Assembly: GCA_947054455.1 (NCBI GenBank) | Contig: CAMRWN010000001.1 | Span: 74,966 to 138,965, forward strand | Direction of reading: 5' to 3' | DNA: 64,000 bases | From: an uncultured Alphaproteobacteria bacterium | Lineage (GTDB): Bacteria; Pseudomonadota; Alphaproteobacteria; Rs-D84 | Part shown: piece after piece, positions 35,030-58,641 of the stretch | Layout of the letters: every line of letters starts with the position of its first letter | Numbering within the stretch: position 1 is the stretch's first letter | The notes under the pieces: model-generated | Told to the model about the DNA's origin: nothing | Seen by the model: the letters and a program-made list of their open reading frames with translations, nothing else | Database searches by the model: none | Translations under genes and position numbers: made by a program

Positions 35030-35974
35030 TCAAAACGCTTCTTCGCAACGGTGGGTTTCTTTAATAATCTTGTTTATCTTGGTCAAACTCGCAATATTAA
35101 ATCCGGTTGAAACACCACTCAGCACAGTTGTCGCACCCGCCATCACATTCGCGGTTGTATTCAGGTTCTTTTCCTTCTTTTTGCCAGATTCTGAATTATC
35201 ATTACGAATGCCCGATGAATTTGCCACGGCACTGTTTACTGTGCCGGTTGCACCGGTAACGCCCCCCGCAATACTTGTTCCCATGACAACAGTTTGCTGT
35301 TTTTCAAATTTTTCTATTTCTGTGGCGTCAATGTTTCCACACCATGTTTTTATATTATCAAGTTTCCGAACAATTGGATTTTCCATAGGATTCAGCCCGC
35401 CTACATCCGCATTTTTGACCGATGCAACCGCGTTATTACATGCAGTTATCTGCTGTATTAAATCAGACTGATTATGATTGACACCCGACACAATCGCAGA
35501 CGTAATATTTGTTGCCGTTGCACCCGCCATCAGGCCCGTACGCCAATTTCCCATTCTTTTTGAACGTTTTTCCGCATCCACCAATTGCTGTTGCAATTCG
35601 GCAATTTCAGACATCGGCAGTATAACACTGTTAAAGAAAGTATCCGGGCTCATTTGCGCCACCGTATCGGGATTACACCCGCCGGCATCACAAATCTGCT
35701 TTTCCAAGCGTTCTATTTCTTTATCTATCTGAGCCTTGGATAATCCTGCATATAATGCACCACCAGCCGCAACGGCACCAACACCGGACACAACCGTGCC
35801 TGCCGTCGTCATATTTTTCAAATGTTGCAATTCATCGGATATACCACTACAAACAGCGCTTGTTGCATTATAAAGTTGTGTAAGTTGTAAAATTCTGTCC
35901 GCATCATCTGCATGCGCTGATGTATTAAGCGTCAACACCGCAACCATAAACAAGAACAAATAACCGGATTTCAT
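35030..35974 (-). CDS. Hypothetical secreted protein (314 aa) with Gly/Ala/Thr-rich segments and scattered Cys
   Basis: It has a signal peptide (MKSGYLFLFMVAVLTLNTSAHA). The ATG lies 9 nt from a TGTGATATAAT extended -10. The gene sits in the AT-rich island. Confidence 0.6.
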   Translation of the reverse strand: MKSGYLFLFMVAVLTLNTSAHADDADRILQLTQLYNATSAVCSGISDELQHLKNMTTAGTVVSGVGAVAAGGALYAGLSKAQIDKEIERLEKQICDAGGCNPDTVAQMSPDTFFNSVILPMSEIAELQQQLVDAEKRSKRMGNWRTGLMAGATATNITSAIVSGVNHNQSDLIQQITACNNAVASVKNADVGGLNPMENPIVRKLDNIKTWCGNIDATEIEKFEKQQTVVMGTSIAGGVTGATGTVNSAVANSSGIRNDNSESGKKKEKNLNTTANVMAGATTVLSGVSTGFNIASLTKINKIIKETHRCEEAF

Positions 35975-35982
35975 GATGATGA

Positions 35983-35995
35983 ATTATATCACAAC
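35983..35995 (-). promoter_or_regulatory. TTGTGATATAATT extended -10 promoter motif; 9 nt separate TATAAT from the ATG of the 35030..35974 gene
   Basis: This is an exact copy of the 11-mer TGTGATATAAT, read on the minus strand. Confidence 0.55.
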
Positions 35996-41944: not shown

Positions 41945-41973
41945 TTGACAAAACCACGATTTGTGGTATTATT
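41945..41973 (+). promoter_or_regulatory. Near-consensus sigma70 promoter (TTGACA-N17-ATTATT/TATTAT)
   Basis: The sequence ttgaca-aaaccacgatttgtggt-attatt lies upstream of the small ORF at 42001. Its spacer contains a 5-bp inverted repeat (accac...gtggt). Confidence 0.5.
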
Positions 41974-42000
41974 ATTTTGTTTAAACCAAGGTATAAAAAC

Positions 42001-42186
42001 ATGAGTGTTATAAAGTCGGCAATTCAGGATAACCTGAAAAACGTGGAAGAAACAATATCTGACCCGAAAACAAACGGTCTGCAGCGTACCCAGCTGTATG
42101 GAATGCAGATGAACATGTTATGCATGCTGGCCATTACAGAGGCGGTTGAAAAAATAATCGCAAAATGCCGCGGCCGTCAAAAATAA
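42001..42186 (+). CDS. Hypothetical small protein (61 aa from MSVIK; 69 aa from the upstream Met)
   Basis: An ORF downstream of a strong promoter and upstream of rpmH. No family recognised. Confidence 0.35.
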
Positions 42187-42358: not shown

Positions 42359-42511
42359 ATGGCAACAAAACGTACTTATCAACCTTCTAAAACGCGCCGC
42401 GTGCGTACGCACGGGTTCCGTGAAAGAATGTCAACCAAGGGCGGACGCGAGGTTTTGAACCGTCGTCGCGCGTGCGGTCGCAAAAGATTGGCGGCAACTG
42501 CTGCAAATTAA
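42359..42511 (+). CDS. rpmH: 50S ribosomal protein L34 (50 aa, below the ORF-track cutoff)
   Basis: Manual translation gives [50 protein letters not shown], the canonical L34 sequence. An RBS AAAGGA lies 8 nt upstream. The terminator hairpin aaaatcccccgattgggggatttttatttt follows at 42511-42545. Confidence 0.9.
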
Positions 42512-42611
42512 AAAATCCCCCGATTGGGGGATTTTTATTTTTCCAAAAATCAATAAGTGCCGCCTTTACCCCGCAACAATTAACTGTTAAGGCATTGATT
42601 CCATGCAGTGG

Positions 42612-42624
42612 TTGTGATATAATC
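42612..42624 (+). promoter_or_regulatory. TTGTGATATAATC extended -10 promoter motif upstream of the secreted repeat-protein operon
   Basis: An exact TGTGATATAAT 11-mer, 56 nt upstream of the ATG at 42680. Confidence 0.5.
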
Positions 42625-42679
42625 AAACGTAAAAATTATATTCGCAATTTGGATTTTATGATAAGGGGGAAATTTTTCA

Positions 42680-42954
42680 TGAAGCATCGATTGCTGCCGA
42701 TAGTTTTTACGGCTCAATGCTTTATATTATCTATGCCGTCTTTTGGTGCCACACCAAACGAACAGGTGGCATCTGCGGCATATGTCGACAACCGCGTCAA
42801 CGAAATGGAAAGCCGCACCGTCAACAAGGACGAATTCAAAACATTTTCCGACGAACTGCCCAATCGCTTTGTCGACACCACCGAAAATCAGACAATTTCC
42901 GGTGTAAAAACTTATACGTCTTCCCCGATTGTTCCGACGCCGCCGCTGCCGTAA
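42680..42954 (+). CDS. Small secreted hypothetical protein (91 aa), first gene of a two-gene operon
   Basis: A strong RBS (AAGGGGGA) lies 7 nt before the ATG. It has a signal peptide (MKHRLLPIVFTAQCFILSMPSFGA). Its stop overlaps the next gene's start (TAATG). Confidence 0.6.
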
Positions 42955-44231
42955 TGATAAAACGTCTGCTGATTCTTTTTTGCATATTGTTCGCACCCGC
43001 CGCCCGGTCGGCGGAAATGGTCAGCGTCGAATACATTCACAACGCCATCGAACAACGCTGCGGCATCGTCGTGCCGTACAATCCCGCGCTGGGCAACAAG
43101 AAAGTCGCCGCAAATATGAAATATCTGCTGACGGCGATTGACCGGGCGAACGAAATACAAAACAACCGGGCCGTTTCACACTACGGCGACAATTCGACAT
43201 TTGCAACAATGGCGGCCGCCGACACGGTCGCGACAAATGACGCGATTGACCGCCTGATAAAGATGCCGTTTACCATCACCACAACGCCCGATACAACCGT
43301 GTTCAACTTTGACCTGTCCGCGCGCGGAACATTTGCGGTCAACTGGGGCGACGGCACGTTCCAAACAATCCAGCGCGATAATACAGAATTACAAACATAT
43401 TCCCACACATACGCCAAGGCCGGCAAATATAAAATCGGAATTGCCGGAACGGCAACAGGATATAGCATTGCGGACGACACCCCAAACACAACCGCGGCAA
43501 TACATTTTAGAAAGAACGAAAACATTGCGGAAATTCATGGCTCGGTTGGGGCAATATTCGGCACCATCGGCGATGGCACGATTGCCGGAAATCAACCGAA
43601 TTTTCGCAACACATTCCGCGAATGCCCCAACCTGACCAGCGAAATTCCCGCCGAATTGTTCGACGGCGTTCATGGCGCGCCCGTTCCATGGATGTTTGCC
43701 GGAACTTTTGAAGCCACGCCGTTTTCTGGTTCCATACCTGAAAATTTGTTTTCCGGCATACAGGGCAGTCCGATATTCGCAATGTTTAACAACACATTCA
43801 AAGAAAGTAAGATTTCCGGCACGATACCCGCAAAACTGTTCAGCGGGATACACGGCGCGCCCGCGCCCTATATGTTCGCCGGCACATTTTACTGGGTGGA
43901 AAACTTGACCGGTAGCATCCCCGCAGGCATGTTTGCCGGAATTCGTGGTGAACCTGCAATATATATGTATCACGGCTTGTTTGTTAATTGTTCCGGTCTG
44001 ACCGGCCAGATTCCCGAAAATTTGTTTGGCGACATTTCCGGCCCCGCCGCCGAATTCATGTTTCGTTATACATTCCAAAACTGCAGCGGTCTGACCGGGC
44101 CGTCGGCGCGTATCAACGGCAAATATCTGTATGAAATATGGCCCGACGCGCCCGCCAACGCAACCCAGTTATGCTATAAAAGCGTAACAGGCTTATCCGA
44201 TTATGCCACGATACCGGCGGCATGGAAATAA
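42954..44231 (+). CDS. Secreted protein with ~6 tandem ~31-aa LRR-like repeats of pattern MF.GTF...L(T/S)G.IP..LF.GI.G.P (DUF285/BspA-like character)
   Basis: It has a signal peptide (MIKRLLILFCILFAPAARSA). Six repeats cover aa ~215-400, for example MFAGTFEATPFSGSIPENLFSGIQGSPIFA, MFNNTFKESKISGTIPAKLFSGIHGAPAPY and MFAGTFYWVENLTGSIPAGMFAGIRGEPAIY. The ORF is translationally coupled to the upstream small gene. Confidence 0.7.
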   Translation: MIKRLLILFCILFAPAARSAEMVSVEYIHNAIEQRCGIVVPYNPALGNKKVAANMKYLLTAIDRANEIQNNRAVSHYGDNSTFATMAAADTVATNDAIDRLIKMPFTITTTPDTTVFNFDLSARGTFAVNWGDGTFQTIQRDNTELQTYSHTYAKAGKYKIGIAGTATGYSIADDTPNTTAAIHFRKNENIAEIHGSVGAIFGTIGDGTIAGNQPNFRNTFRECPNLTSEIPAELFDGVHGAPVPWMFAGTFEATPFSGSIPENLFSGIQGSPIFAMFNNTFKESKISGTIPAKLFSGIHGAPAPYMFAGTFYWVENLTGSIPAGMFAGIRGEPAIYMYHGLFVNCSGLTGQIPENLFGDISGPAAEFMFRYTFQNCSGLTGPSARINGKYLYEIWPDAPANATQLCYKSVTGLSDYATIPAAWK

Positions 44232-44255
44232 AAATCCCCGCGAACGCAGGGATTT

Positions 44256-44453
44256 TTATCTGATGCGCAGCGCATCCAAAATTCGCATAAAATCATGCAC
44301 GGCGACAATTTCCGCGCCGCGTTCAATTGCGCGATAACTCCGGGCCGGAATTCCGGACATAGATGCCGCATCATGCACGGTTATATTTCGCCGGCAACGC
44401 AGACCGCACAGCTCGCGCCCTAATTTTGTATAAAATATTTCTTCGTCCGTCAT
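44256..44453 (-). CDS. XRE-family HTH transcriptional regulator (65 aa)
   Basis: It has an HTH_XRE-like core (LRCRRNITVHDAASMSGIPARSYRAIERG). Confidence 0.55.
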   Translation of the reverse strand: MTDEEIFYTKLGRELCGLRCRRNITVHDAASMSGIPARSYRAIERGAEIVAVHDFMRILDALRIR

Positions 44454-44462
44454 ATGCGCCCC

Positions 44463-44813
44463 CTATTTTACCGACGCCAGGCGGTCAATCAACGCGCAGA
44501 CCATTGCGCGGTCGGATTCCCCCATCAGACACAGCCCCTCGATTGCGCGGCGCGTATCCGCATCGTATATGTCGCCACGGCGAAGCTCGGTAAACACACC
44601 GTCAAACGGCGCGTCCAGTATTTTCAAAATATTATAAAATCGCGAAACCGACATGCGGTTTGCGGCAACCTCGTACTTTTGCATTTGCTGAAAGGTTATT
44701 CCCAATTGCGCGGCCAATGCCTTTTGCGACAGGCCTTGCCTGCGCCGCAATATACTGACCAGTTGCCCGGCCTGAACATCAATGGCCGTCGGCGTGAATG
44801 GTTTTCCAGACAT
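44463..44813 (-). CDS. XRE-family HTH transcriptional regulator (116 aa)
   Basis: It has a canonical HTH_XRE (LRRRQGLSQKALAAQLGITFQQMQKYE). The RBS is GGGGGAG. Confidence 0.7.
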   Translation of the reverse strand: MSGKPFTPTAIDVQAGQLVSILRRRQGLSQKALAAQLGITFQQMQKYEVAANRMSVSRFYNILKILDAPFDGVFTELRRGDIYDADTRRAIEGLCLMGESDRAMVCALIDRLASVK

Positions 44814-45343
44814 TCATCTCCCCCCGTTGTCTTAAACAAAAAACCACCGGAAATTATTTCGAGGTGGTTGGAGGTAGAAAACAATAAACCAGAGTAATTG
44901 CCTGTCTTATTCAATATATTCGACAGCCCCCAACCATTCAGTTGAAGTATGTGCCTGCGCCTGCATCAGGCGCATCTGGTTTAGAGGTTTTCCAGCCTCA
45001 CATTCGCAATGGGTGTACGAATTATGCAATTACATTATATCCCATCGGGCGCAAAATTCAACCGATAAAAATATAATGCCCGCCGTCAAAGACAAAGCGG
45101 GACTGGAGCTAGTAATAGCACAATACCATGCCAGTGATTTATTGATTATTCATCACCATCCAGTCCCATTGGACTGGCATTTAACGCATGCAGGCGGGTA
45201 TTGTGCGGGATTACTAGTCCCGCATAATGGATTCCCATTACAGGTGATATTATATCCTATATCATATGAAATTTCAAATAAAAAACATAATCCAATTGAC
45301 AGAGGCAAATAAAAATCCCCGCATTCGCGGGGCACAGGAGTAT

Positions 45344-56352: not shown

Positions 56353-56396
56353 AAAAATCCCGCGCAGTTTGATGCGCGGGATTTTTTTTATTTTGT
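56353..56396. terminator. Bidirectional rho-independent terminator between dnaQ and the 743-aa secreted protein gene
   Basis: The 10-bp GC stem atcccgcgca-gtttga-tgcgcgggat is flanked by A and T runs. Confidence 0.75.
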
Positions 56397-58619
56397 TTCC
56401 TGTTGTGTACAGATACCGCCCTTCATGCTGTATCCCTCATCACATACGCATTGGCCCGTGGTCGGGTTGCGCTTTGAATTGGCGCCACAGTTCAAAACAC
56501 AGGCCGTCCCCCACAGCGTATATCCAACATTGCAGGTGCATCTGGCGTTGACATAACACTTCTGGGTAGGCGACGCAACGCAACCGTTTACGCTCAACGT
56601 CGATTCTTCCTGCTGATATGTGGAATTTTCCGGACACAGCAACGACTGATAGAACATTTCGGAAATATTACTGATGCATGTATCCGGGCTATCGGCGGGG
56701 CATAGCGCTTTATCATCATTATCCGTGGCATCCTGGAACACCGCATACGCACAGGTCAGCGCAACATTGCGGCACGCACCACGCATTACGTTGTAAATGC
56801 TGTTGATTGTTGCTGACGAAGACCATGAATTAACCTGGGTCACCTGCTGGTTATAACATGTCGCGATTTCAGTCATGCATGTTGACGCATAATCCGAAAT
56901 AATCTTTTGCTGCGCGGCCTTGATGTTTACCATCGCACGCTGTACATAATTTACAACAACATCGTTATACGGCTCATAAGTTCCGGACGACGAATATGTG
57001 TAATTCTGACACTTGTCCAAAACCGCACGGCACAGACCACCATCGGTGGTTTTTTGCCCCGTTCCGATTTTCGTCATCAGATATTTTACATTGCACGCTC
57101 CGTCGCCGCCTTTACCGTCATCACCAACGCAGGCGTCCTTGCTGATTGAAGACATTTTGTCCGCGGCTGCCAGAAAACCGCGGTTAATATCCGCATTGTT
57201 ATAGTTTTCCATAAACGTGGTTATATCGGTTATATTCTGCCCCAGGACGACATTGCCGTTTTCGTCGATATATCTTTTCGTCGGGTCCAGACACTTGTTG
57301 TAATCGGCACCGCACACCATGTCGTCGGTCATGCATGCATCCAGCGCGGCGATGCATCCCTTGGCATCGTATTGGTTCTTGTTCTGCAAAACGGCCAGAC
57401 GCGCCTTTTGCAGCATGCGACCCGCACTGCGCACATTTGACACCAGCGTTTCATTCATCTTGGTCAATCCCTGCTCGTACGCGATACAGTCCTTGTCAAT
57501 CGCCAGGTCGTAATTGCCGGTTATCTGCTGGGACGTGGCGCCAACCTCCTTGCACTGGGTCAGGATTGTGTTGCAGCGCCGTTTTGCCGCATTATACAAT
57601 TCCGTTCCGCGCAGGTTTGAAAAACTGCTGCTGGCGCCGGCATTCAGGAAATCCAGACTAAACATGTCGGAATTGTCGGCCGAAAAATCCAAATCTATAT
57701 CAAATCCGTTGTATGTGTCCGCGGAATAGGAGGTCGCACTGACCGGGTCTTTTATCAGCTTTTCAATTTCATCAAGCATGCTGCGCGTTTCGGTGCTATC
57801 CACCTTGCCCGACAGTGCCTCTTCCGCCTCTGTCGCGGTCATAATCGCACGTATTTCATCAGCCGACAAACCAACATAGCGAATACGCTGCGCGACATCG
57901 TTAAGCTGGGTGTTGGCCTCTTTCACGGCATTTTCAACCTTGGTGTATCGCGACAGGTTTGCACTGCAGCTGCAGCGTTTCTGATTTGCGTCGACAACCG
58001 CGCAGAACTGGTCCATGCAGTCATTATACTGTTCCTGGCAGGATTTGTTAAGCTCCGCCGTTTGTTCCAGACGCTCCTTGGCCTCTGCTATGGATTCGCG
58101 GGTTGTTTGTGCTGCGGCACGGGCGCTGACACTGCGGGCGCTGGACGCAACGTTTGACCCCGTCTGAATATTTGTTTCACCGATTGTGGCGCGGCCCCCG
58201 ACCTCTGCCGTGCTGGGGCGCAGCGTCACGCCCACCCGGCGCAACGCGGGGTCGTTGTTTATTGCAGCGGCGCTGACGCGGGCGTTGCGACCAACCGTGT
58301 TCACCGCCGCATCCAGACCGGCGCGCGACGCGACGGCCGCAGACGACGACTGGGCCGCGCGATGCGCGACACTGGATTGACGCACACTGGCCGTATCACG
58401 CGTTGGCGCGGCGGCCGACGCATCAGACGCCGTACGTGAAATTGTGCGCGACGGCGCGGCCGCGGTGCGCGCGACGGCCGTGCGGGCGGTGTCGGTCGAC
58501 GACGGCGCCGCAGTTGCGCCCGATGACGGAATCACGCGCGATGCAGTCGCACCGTCGGCCGCAAACGCGCCGGGTGCAAAAAACATTCCGCAGAAAAAGC
58601 ACAGTGCAAGTTTATTCAT
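56388..58619 (-). CDS. Large secreted Cys-rich hypothetical protein (743 aa) with a ~190-aa Ala/Ser/Thr/Arg-rich low-complexity N-terminal region
   Basis: It has a signal peptide (MNKLALCFFCGMFFAPGAFAADG). More than 45 Cys are concentrated in the C-terminal 550 aa, with no recognisable repeat family. Its ATG lies 10 nt from a TGTGATATAAT extended -10. Confidence 0.65.
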   Translation of the reverse strand: MNKLALCFFCGMFFAPGAFAADGATASRVIPSSGATAAPSSTDTARTAVARTAAAPSRTISRTASDASAAAPTRDTASVRQSSVAHRAAQSSSAAVASRAGLDAAVNTVGRNARVSAAAINNDPALRRVGVTLRPSTAEVGGRATIGETNIQTGSNVASSARSVSARAAAQTTRESIAEAKERLEQTAELNKSCQEQYNDCMDQFCAVVDANQKRCSCSANLSRYTKVENAVKEANTQLNDVAQRIRYVGLSADEIRAIMTATEAEEALSGKVDSTETRSMLDEIEKLIKDPVSATSYSADTYNGFDIDLDFSADNSDMFSLDFLNAGASSSFSNLRGTELYNAAKRRCNTILTQCKEVGATSQQITGNYDLAIDKDCIAYEQGLTKMNETLVSNVRSAGRMLQKARLAVLQNKNQYDAKGCIAALDACMTDDMVCGADYNKCLDPTKRYIDENGNVVLGQNITDITTFMENYNNADINRGFLAAADKMSSISKDACVGDDGKGGDGACNVKYLMTKIGTGQKTTDGGLCRAVLDKCQNYTYSSSGTYEPYNDVVVNYVQRAMVNIKAAQQKIISDYASTCMTEIATCYNQQVTQVNSWSSSATINSIYNVMRGACRNVALTCAYAVFQDATDNDDKALCPADSPDTCISNISEMFYQSLLCPENSTYQQEESTLSVNGCVASPTQKCYVNARCTCNVGYTLWGTACVLNCGANSKRNPTTGQCVCDEGYSMKGGICTQQETK

Positions 58620-58628
58620 TCTCAGCTA

Positions 58629-58641
58629 AATTATATCACAA
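58629..58641 (-). promoter_or_regulatory. TTGTGATATAATT extended -10 promoter motif; 10 nt separate TATAAT from the ATG of the 743-aa secreted protein gene
   Basis: An exact TGTGATATAAT 11-mer, read on the minus strand. Confidence 0.55.

Follow-up and report, generated by a model that had tools for sequence, protein, structure and literature searches.

A two-gene cassette for a predicted secreted leucine-rich-repeat-like protein and its small partner in the alphaproteobacterial lineage Rs-D84

Leucine-rich repeat (LRR) proteins of the BspA-like or TpLRR type (Pfam LRR_5), such as BspA of Tannerella forsythia and TvBspA of Trichomonas vaginalis, are secreted or surface-located repeat proteins of host-associated microbes, with repeats of about 23 residues. 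They form large paralogous families whose members differ mainly in repeat number, and a role in adhesion has been described in other organisms (PMC2843621; see also PMC6701047). Also comparable are the DUF285 or PARCEL repeats and the 26-residue repeat (PF03382, TIGR02167) of Mycoplasma, Listeria and phages, as well as the LRR ectodomains of plant receptors such as FLS2 and BRI1. Here we analyse a 64-kb stretch of contig CAMRWN010000001.1 from an uncultured alphaproteobacterium of the lineage Rs-D84 (the window, 64,000 nucleotides (nt)), in which a two-gene operon encodes a small protein and a large, 425-residue repeat protein. We propose, with moderate confidence, that this operon is one copy of a lineage-specific two-gene cassette for a secreted partner pair, which carries an LRR-like head and serves as an attachment or recognition module.

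Compared with the BspA-like proteins, the large product of the cassette is likewise predicted to be a secreted repeat protein of a host-associated microbe and belongs to a paralogous family that varies in repeat number. Its scaffold motif (F..C..L..IP...F) is similar, and the predicted fold matches phage proteins annotated as BspA or LRR_5. The cassette differs in its longer repeats (29-31 residues), in a conserved helical N-terminal domain followed by a PKD-like domain, and in the small partner gene upstream. The recurring MF...C..L signature of the DUF285/PARCEL class is also found in the cassette repeats, and both groups occur in reduced-genome, host-dependent bacteria; the cassette repeats have 29-31 residues rather than 26, however, its proteins are not lipoproteins, and they stay below the cut-off of TIGR02167. 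The sub-motif (N/C)xGL(T/S)GxIPxxL(F/G) is common to cassette repeats and plant LRRs, but the plant repeats are, from the spacing of the matches, of ~24 residues, only 10-14 residues per unit align, and no LRR structure in the PDB is matched significantly by Foldseek. The resemblance to plant receptors may be convergent.

Both genes lie on the plus strand in the same orientation, and the stop codon of the small gene (TAA, 42952-42954) overlaps the start codon of the large one (ATG, 42954-42956) in the sequence TAATG. Since they are bounded by a promoter and by terminators on either side (Table 1), the two genes appear as one self-contained transcription unit. The downstream hairpin, with folding energies of -15.1 kcal/mol on the plus strand and -20.9 kcal/mol on the minus strand (z-score -5.5), separates the operon from two convergent XRE-family genes and serves both sides. 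In the large gene, a longer in-frame open reading frame (ORF) exists from 42717; comparison with relatives identifies 42954 as the correct start, because the MIKRLL... signal peptide is where the proteins of the relatives start, and because conservation extends to the small ORF that the longer frame would overlap. The two-gene operon, its TAATG coupling and the predicted secretion of its products, all claimed in the original prediction, are supported by the promoter, the overlap, the terminators and the signal-peptide-like N-termini of both proteins. The small gene, placed there at 42680..42954, is real as well but begins one base earlier, at 42679, the frame from 42680 being broken by stop codons. 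The annotated flanking genes are gyrA, rpmH, an inositol monophosphatase gene and rpmE. In GC content neither the cassette nor the XRE genes stand out; Rfam gave no match near the operon or in the 44.78-45.36 kb region, and neither cassette gene has a paralogue elsewhere in the window.

Table 1 Positions of the cassette, its signals and its neighbours in the window (aa, amino acids; AF2, AlphaFold2; HMM, hidden Markov model; pLDDT, predicted local distance difference test).
Feature	Position	Strand	Basis
rpmH terminator (hairpin and T-run; 5' boundary of the operon)	42511..42536	+	-16.7 kcal/mol
Sigma-70-type promoter, TTGATT-N17-TATAAT, extended -10 (upstream TG)	42595..42623	+	sequence motif
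Shine-Dalgarno-like AAGGGGG, 9 nt before small-gene ATG	42663..42669	+	direct reading of sequence
Small partner gene, 91 aa and stop	42679..42954	+	ORF; orthologues 52-55% identical
Large gene, 425 aa	42954..44231	+	ORF
Large-protein signal peptide, aa 1-19	42954..43010	+	sequence; pLDDT below 50
N-terminal helical domain, aa 20-105	43011..43268	+	AF2, alignment
PKD-like beta-sandwich, aa 106-196, seven strands, WGDG motif	43269..43541	+	AF2
5.5 tandem repeats, aa 217-382	43602..44099	+	family-trained HMM, AF2
Conserved C-terminal cap, aa 383-425 (...ARINGKYLYEIWP...GLSDYATIPAAWK), and stop codon	44100..44231	+	alignment, AF2
Bidirectional hairpin terminator, 15-bp arms, U-runs on both strands	44228..44259	.	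folding energy
xre65, 65 aa, HTH_3 (PF01381)	44256..44453	-	Pfam 23.5 bits (cut-off 23)
xre116, 116 aa, HTH_3	44463..44813	-	Pfam 27.6 bits (cut-off 23)

A model trained on the family places five full repeat units in the large protein (aa 217-243, 247-273, 277-304, 307-335 and 338-366; 35-49 bits each), followed by a half unit at aa 369-382, with a unit spacing of 30-31 aa. The family consensus reads MFxxTFxxCxGLTGxIPxxLFAGIxGAPAxx, and the variable positions lie between the fixed F, L, I, P and G residues of the scaffold. In 120 homologues the period is 29, 30 or 31 aa; they contain between 5 and 17 repeats, and longer proteins tend to have more of them (r = 0.72). At the DNA level a 26-nt segment recurs four times at 90/93/93-nt spacing with 65-81% identity, while Tandem Repeats Finder called nothing on the DNA. 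The tandem repeats described previously are thereby real, with a count of 5.5 units at 30-31 aa in place of six of ~31 aa, and the accompanying ~93-nt periodicity is weak but present.

Curated models do not recognise these repeats. Pfam LRR_5 (PF13306, gathering cut-off 27.7 bits) gave no match to the whole protein at E <= 1, to the repeat region alone at E <= 10 or to 60 homologues at E <= 0.01; the family member P0119 reaches 25.9 bits (E = 1e-5), which lies under the cut-off. TIGR02167 scores 11.2 bits (E = 0.24) on the large protein against a cut-off of 30, and PF03382 (DUF285) matches neither the large protein, nor its repeat region, nor the 60 homologues. The AF2 model of the large protein, computed from a 60-sequence alignment, is confident (pLDDT 91.8, predicted template modelling score (pTM) 0.86; pLDDT 95-98 in the repeat region), and aa 197-425 show near-zero regular structure by DSSP at a pLDDT of ~90-98, the signature of a predicted short-strand solenoid. 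A Foldseek search with this model against BFVD, a set of predicted viral structures, returned 22 matches at E <= 1e-3. The top match is named 'Leucine-rich repeat protein' (E = 4.6e-15); other names are 'Leucine rich repeat 5', 'BspA family leucine-rich repeat surface protein', 'PKD domain-containing protein' and, at ranks 7, 17 and 18, 'Bacterial surface protein 26-residue repeat'. Template modelling scores reach at best 0.48 for the query and 0.61 for the target, across 347 columns. A 29-position repeat profile in turn matches FLS2 with 4.7e-14, a value summed over ~25 weak repeat matches, as well as BRI1 and others, with the plant receptor matches running through the LTGxIPxxLF sub-motif; it also matches the uncharacterised PDB chain 4fs7 (4.9e-3). 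The match of the phage family phrog_9915 to the repeat region (8.9e-15) is a further sequence link.

Our reading is that the repeats, with their 29-31 residues, represent a divergent form of BspA/DUF285-type LRRs for which current libraries contain no model: the protein resembles this class by predicted fold and by weak sequence links and would work like its members, and it falls outside the class by formal membership. The likeness to DUF285/BspA-type LRRs, as originally proposed, accordingly holds for the predicted fold and fails for every curated repeat model, and two of the checks suggested alongside it diverge in the same manner, HMMER giving no Pfam LRR or DUF285 match at threshold and AlphaFold a confident solenoid-like model.

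The N-terminus of the large protein, judged by eye, resembles a Sec signal (MIKR, then LLILFCILFAPA, then ARS|A), forms the sole low-confidence stretch of the AF2 model, and shows in the homologues a preserved cleavage-site context, AxA|A(E/Q)xVNVEYIH. The N-terminal domain, modelled with helices at aa 25-36, 55-70 and 91-101, carries the family-invariant residues Y27, H29, N54, M55, Y57, L59, D63 and N66. For the beta-sandwich, tested with the models PF00801 and PF18911 (PKD and PKD_4), PKD_4 scores 16.3 bits on the window protein (E = 0.01) against a cut-off of 27; PKD matches 13 and PKD_4 5 of 60 homologues at E <= 0.01, and P0270 (30.4 bits) and P0246 (25.6 bits) pass the PKD cut-off of 23.5 bits. 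Three further ideas about the architecture were rejected. The N-terminal domain is neither an internal triplication nor related to the small protein (hhalign probability at most 4.5% in either case), and a split into constant anchor and variable head finds no counterpart in the per-domain pairwise identities, all of which are 50-59%.

The other product of the operon likewise belongs to a family. By eye, the small protein begins with a Sec-signal-like stretch (MKHR, a hydrophobic stretch and SFG|A), and its mature form would comprise ~50-70 residues. The mature N-terminus is conserved as (D/N)(I/L)(A/P)S..YV and the C-terminal end as (K/R)VDTsAxANQTmAGtYTVsGxxxVPTPPLP, which reads VDTTENQTISGVKTYTSSPIVPTPPLP in the window protein and includes the conserved motif NQTISGVKTYTSSPIVPTPPLP; Q71, G75, L90 and P91 are invariant in 28 sequences. 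Between the conserved ends, variants contain inserts of variable length or extra modules, with overall lengths of 65 to ~200 aa, and Pfam gave no match on the long variants. A profile search yielded at least 294 homologues, all labelled 'hypothetical protein [Alphaproteobacteria bacterium]' and free of Pfam domains. Modelled alone, the protein is predicted poorly (pLDDT 62, pTM 0.20, a single helix at aa 31-50), a quality too low for a fold search and consistent with a protein that folds solely in complex.

Gene order links the two families. In the fetched loci and the window, counting as large any gene with the family N-terminal domain and repeats, a large-family gene stands directly 3' of the small-family gene in 53 of 56 cases, with one further small-family gene at a locus edge; conversely, 52 of the 76 large-family genes with enough upstream sequence have a small gene directly 5'. 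The adjacent NCBI locus tags IJN91_02905 (large) and IJN91_02910 (small) follow the same pattern, and small-large-small arrangements at several loci indicate tandem cassettes. Four orthologous cassettes of the 425-aa type (L001-L004) encode large proteins of 423-427 aa that are 64-65% identical to the one in the window and, because of these lengths, very probably keep its repeat number. Their small genes (52-55% identical) abut the large-gene start, with the overlap or a short spacing preserved, and next to them lie alaS and genes of HU-like and LemA-like type, where the window has gyrA, rpmH and rpmE. As the small gene is retained amid different neighbours, the pair evidently stays together while its surroundings change. 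On the strength of this gene order, the small gene is a conserved partner of the large family.

The large family is extensive and confined in its taxonomy. A word-indexed search found more than 797 homologues, nearly all unnamed and from gut metagenome-assembled genomes (MAGs), and when 1.84 billion cluster representatives (50% identity clusters) were searched exhaustively with a profile, 8,857 matched at E <= 1e-3, 4,231 at E <= 1e-10 and 1,779 at E <= 1e-30. Relatives are encoded by at least 372 loci in GTDB species representatives, all from MAGs labelled as Alphaproteobacteria bacterium, Candidatus Enterousia sp. (order Rs-D84, the label of many of them), uncultured Rickettsiales or bacterium, and the MAG JAAVBP01 alone contains at least 15 family loci. 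A scan of metagenomes for close relatives, intended for strain comparison, returned one distant fragment only, and a literature search found no description of the large repeat-protein family. At the top of the profile matches stand giant members (P0241-P0333), 4,000-7,626 aa long and encoded in gut MAGs of alphaproteobacteria, with up to 24 stretches matching the family profile, mostly PKD and repeats; some of them also contain Listeria-Bacteroides (Flg_new) repeats, one with five such domains, and a 6,326-aa giant is deposited as 'InlB B-repeat-containing protein [Alphaproteobacteria bacterium]' (MBO4480294.1). Such proteins are very large for genomes mostly below 1 Mb. The family may be the largest protein family of Rs-D84 / Ca. 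Enterousia.

Genomes of this lineage are mostly <1 Mb and devoid of most biosynthetic pathways, and its members have been proposed to live as obligate symbionts or parasites (PMC12306168). An attachment module fits a bacterium with so small a genome and a presumed dependence on another organism, and we envisage the following mechanism. Both genes would be transcribed on one mRNA from a strong sigma-70 promoter of constitutive type, as suggested by its sequence signals, and the overlapping TAATG is expected to couple their translation. Export of both products would proceed via the Sec-type signal peptides, to a destination that we place outside the cytoplasm. There, the large protein would comprise the helical N-terminal domain, the PKD-like immunoglobulin-type domain and the solenoid of 29-31-residue leucine-rich-type repeats, the last acting as a putative ligand-binding head, and the small protein, as its obligate partner, may serve as stalk, adaptor or assembly subunit. 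As a complex, the pair would attach to, or recognise, another cell or a host surface, and the diversified paralogues, with 5 to 17 repeats and variable positions between scaffold residues, could provide different specificities. The adhesin role of the large protein is here inferred by analogy to the described LRR proteins.

A bolder version of this idea, which we consider doubtful, is that small and large protein together constitute a novel two-component extracellular attachment organelle. In it, the small protein with its phage-fibre-like motif would form or dock a stalk, the head of PKD domain and 30-residue LRRs would be diversified into dozens of paralogues and into giants of 6,000-7,600 aa, and the genome-reduced, partner-dependent Rs-D84 / Ca. 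Enterousia would thereby recognise and hold their partner cells.

Rs-D84 / Ca. Enterousia are widespread in human and animal guts, and neither a partner nor a contact machinery has been described for them (PMC12306168). The family goes unrecognised in current domain libraries; once defined, it offers candidates for the attachment or recognition step, baits for the partner or ligand, and the ground for a new repeat model, by which thousands of proteins would lose the label 'hypothetical protein'. That LRR surface families expand in host-dependent microbes is a familiar theme; the pairing of two genes in one cassette and the scale that the family reaches in such small genomes give a concrete handle on partner contact. 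Relative to the original prediction, the conserved partnership of the small gene and the size and lineage restriction of the family are added.

Several results weigh against the proposed attachment module. Neither protein has an identifiable device for outer-membrane translocation or anchoring, be it a lipobox, an autotransporter or a sorting domain; by eye, TAQC in the small and ILFC in the large protein do not fit the lipobox pattern [LVI][ASTVI][GAS]C, and the cysteines are not conserved in the homologues. A Sec signal peptide in a diderm bacterium delivers to the periplasm only. The curated Pfam and NCBIfam models for LRR and DUF285 repeats remain below threshold for the protein and for 60 homologues, and Foldseek found no solved structure in the PDB at E <= 1e-3, so that the fold assignment rests on a comparison of predictions with predictions. 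One third of the large-family genes, mostly in two MAGs (JAAVBP01, L007-L009, L014, L016, L022, L024, L028, L030, L037, L049 and L072; CATNBF01, L006, L011, L012, L020 and L033), stand without a small gene, and the partner is therefore not universally required; co-divergence of small and large proteins is weak (r = 0.29). The missing anchor also speaks for an alternative that we rate as unlikely, namely that the products are soluble periplasmic or released factors, such as a binding protein, an effector on a eukaryotic host or a decoy, with no cell-attached adhesin and with the small protein as an independent secreted peptide. LRR proteins serve as secreted effectors in other bacteria. For Mycoplasma bovis, a secreted DUF285 protein with action on host cells has been reported (PMC8707762). 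Yet the tight, conserved gene pairing with its stop/start overlap argues for joint function, the strongly conserved mature N-termini of both proteins suggest an assembly or attachment interface, and homologous modules occur in the giant multi-domain proteins together with Listeria-Bacteroides surface repeats.

The phage links of both proteins bear on a further explanation, in which the cassette would be a receptor-binding or tail-fibre module left by a prophage or tailocin. All structural neighbours are phage proteins, although the libraries searched consisted of viral models and the PDB. At the profile level, phrog_9915, a phage family of 1,813 positions with unknown function, matches aa 214-381 of the large protein (8.9e-15), and weak tblastn matches extend to jumbo phages, for example gp353 of Bacillus phage G. 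The matches of the small protein are weak and also count against our proposal: phrog_38418 (4e-7, function unknown), the 'tail fiber' family phrog_16641 (1.4e-3) and, below threshold, Pfam BppL_N (PF18338; E = 0.35, 11 bits against a cut-off of 25.8), next to hypothetical actinophage proteins (E = 0.03-0.09). Its segment QTISGVKTYTSSP resembles the xQTIxGxKTF motif at the N-termini of phage tail-fibre and receptor-binding proteins such as BppL of lactococcal phage TP901-1. Unlike fibres of the BppL type, however, the small protein, at ~70 residues, stands alone as a polypeptide that has a signal peptide and no attached shaft or head, and its matches to named families all lie below curated thresholds. 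Virion proteins normally lack the Sec signal peptides that both products carry, the neighbours are housekeeping genes, inspection of the flanks turned up no genes for capsid, tail or integrase, each genome has dozens of chromosomal paralogues, often in tandem, and sequenced phages reach an identity of at most 32% over half of the protein by tblastn; a phage origin is thus very improbable in our view. Even less credit is given to control of the operon by the adjacent XRE pair as a cI/Cro-like or otherwise dedicated switch, which the original prediction had brought forward. Its two opposite-strand genes for proteins of 65 and 116 aa are confirmed as bona fide HTH_3 genes, they start 25 nt past the stop codon of the operon, and a 530-nt gene-free stretch upstream of xre116 carries promoter-like sites. 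But the pair runs in tandem on the minus strand, xre116 then xre65 at a distance of 9 nt, and converges on the operon behind the shared terminator, so that a divergent operator layout is absent; the divergent repressor pair with shared operator inside a prophage, typical of cI/Cro, is not what is found. No XRE neighbour exists at L001-L004, xre65 has no homologue in 79 related loci, and homologues of xre116 occur in 7 loci at ~3 kb from a cassette with housekeeping genes between, as in L054, where the gene adjoins a phosphoglycerate-mutase-like gene and others of housekeeping type. With no phage genes seen in the annotated flanks and no GC anomaly, the XRE genes are most likely unrelated neighbours of the cassette, and the attachment module for a secreted pair remains the explanation that we prefer.

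The promoter of the cassette contains an exact copy of TGTGATATAAT (42613-42623), whose last base lies 56 nt ahead of the A of the small-gene ATG. This copy had been noted before, and as a regulon motif. In the window, four exact sites and four with one mismatch occur where 1.2 are expected, all eight preceding unrelated ORFs, and in another MAG (L003) the box recurs 65 nt ahead of the orthologous small gene. Because its sites front unrelated genes, TGTGATATAAT is, by its form and distribution, the canonical extended -10 box (TGnTATAAT), i.e. the generic strong-promoter consensus of the organism and no mark of a regulon. Two over-readings are hence corrected: the promoter box is no regulon signal, and no conserved link joins the XRE genes with the cassette.

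Boxes of the TGTGATATAAT type also lie merely 6-11 nt ahead of four annotated ORF starts, at 35983-35993, 58630-58640, 48249-48259 and 46894-46904 on the minus strand, in front of the ORFs 35030..35974, 56388..58619, 46954..48243 and 46376..46885, respectively. So short a distance points to mRNAs without leaders or to wrongly placed starts. The LRR operon, unlike these four, has a 55-nt leader with a Shine-Dalgarno sequence. A near-consensus promoter with TG (TTGACA-16-TATTAT, 41945-41972) precedes a 69-aa ORF without Pfam match between gyrA and rpmH (41977..42186).

The gene-free stretch upstream of xre116 (44814..45343) includes a strongly structured element of ~130 nt at 45097-45225, a long imperfect inverted repeat that encloses three hairpins and has folding energies of -55 to -57 kcal/mol (z-score -5.0 on one strand, -6.2 on the other). 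The element, present in a single copy in the window and unmatched in Rfam, could be an unknown small RNA, a remnant resembling a miniature inverted-repeat transposable element (MITE) or an operator region. The hairpin that closes the stretch (45306-45332) shares 85% identity with the terminator of the operon (44226-44251).

Further downstream, five consecutive paralogous genes for polytopic membrane proteins span 46954..53527. They encode 429 aa (minus strand) and then 422, 406, 476 and 433 aa (plus strand), each with 5-7 transmembrane-like segments; the 406-aa protein matches the 429-aa one with E = 2e-11 and the 422-aa one with 2e-4, and Pfam and NCBIfam gave no matches for the array. Divergent TGTGATATA(A/G)T promoters are located within it at 48249-48281. 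As a tandem array, it may parallel the duplicated VirB6-like genes of Rickettsiales.

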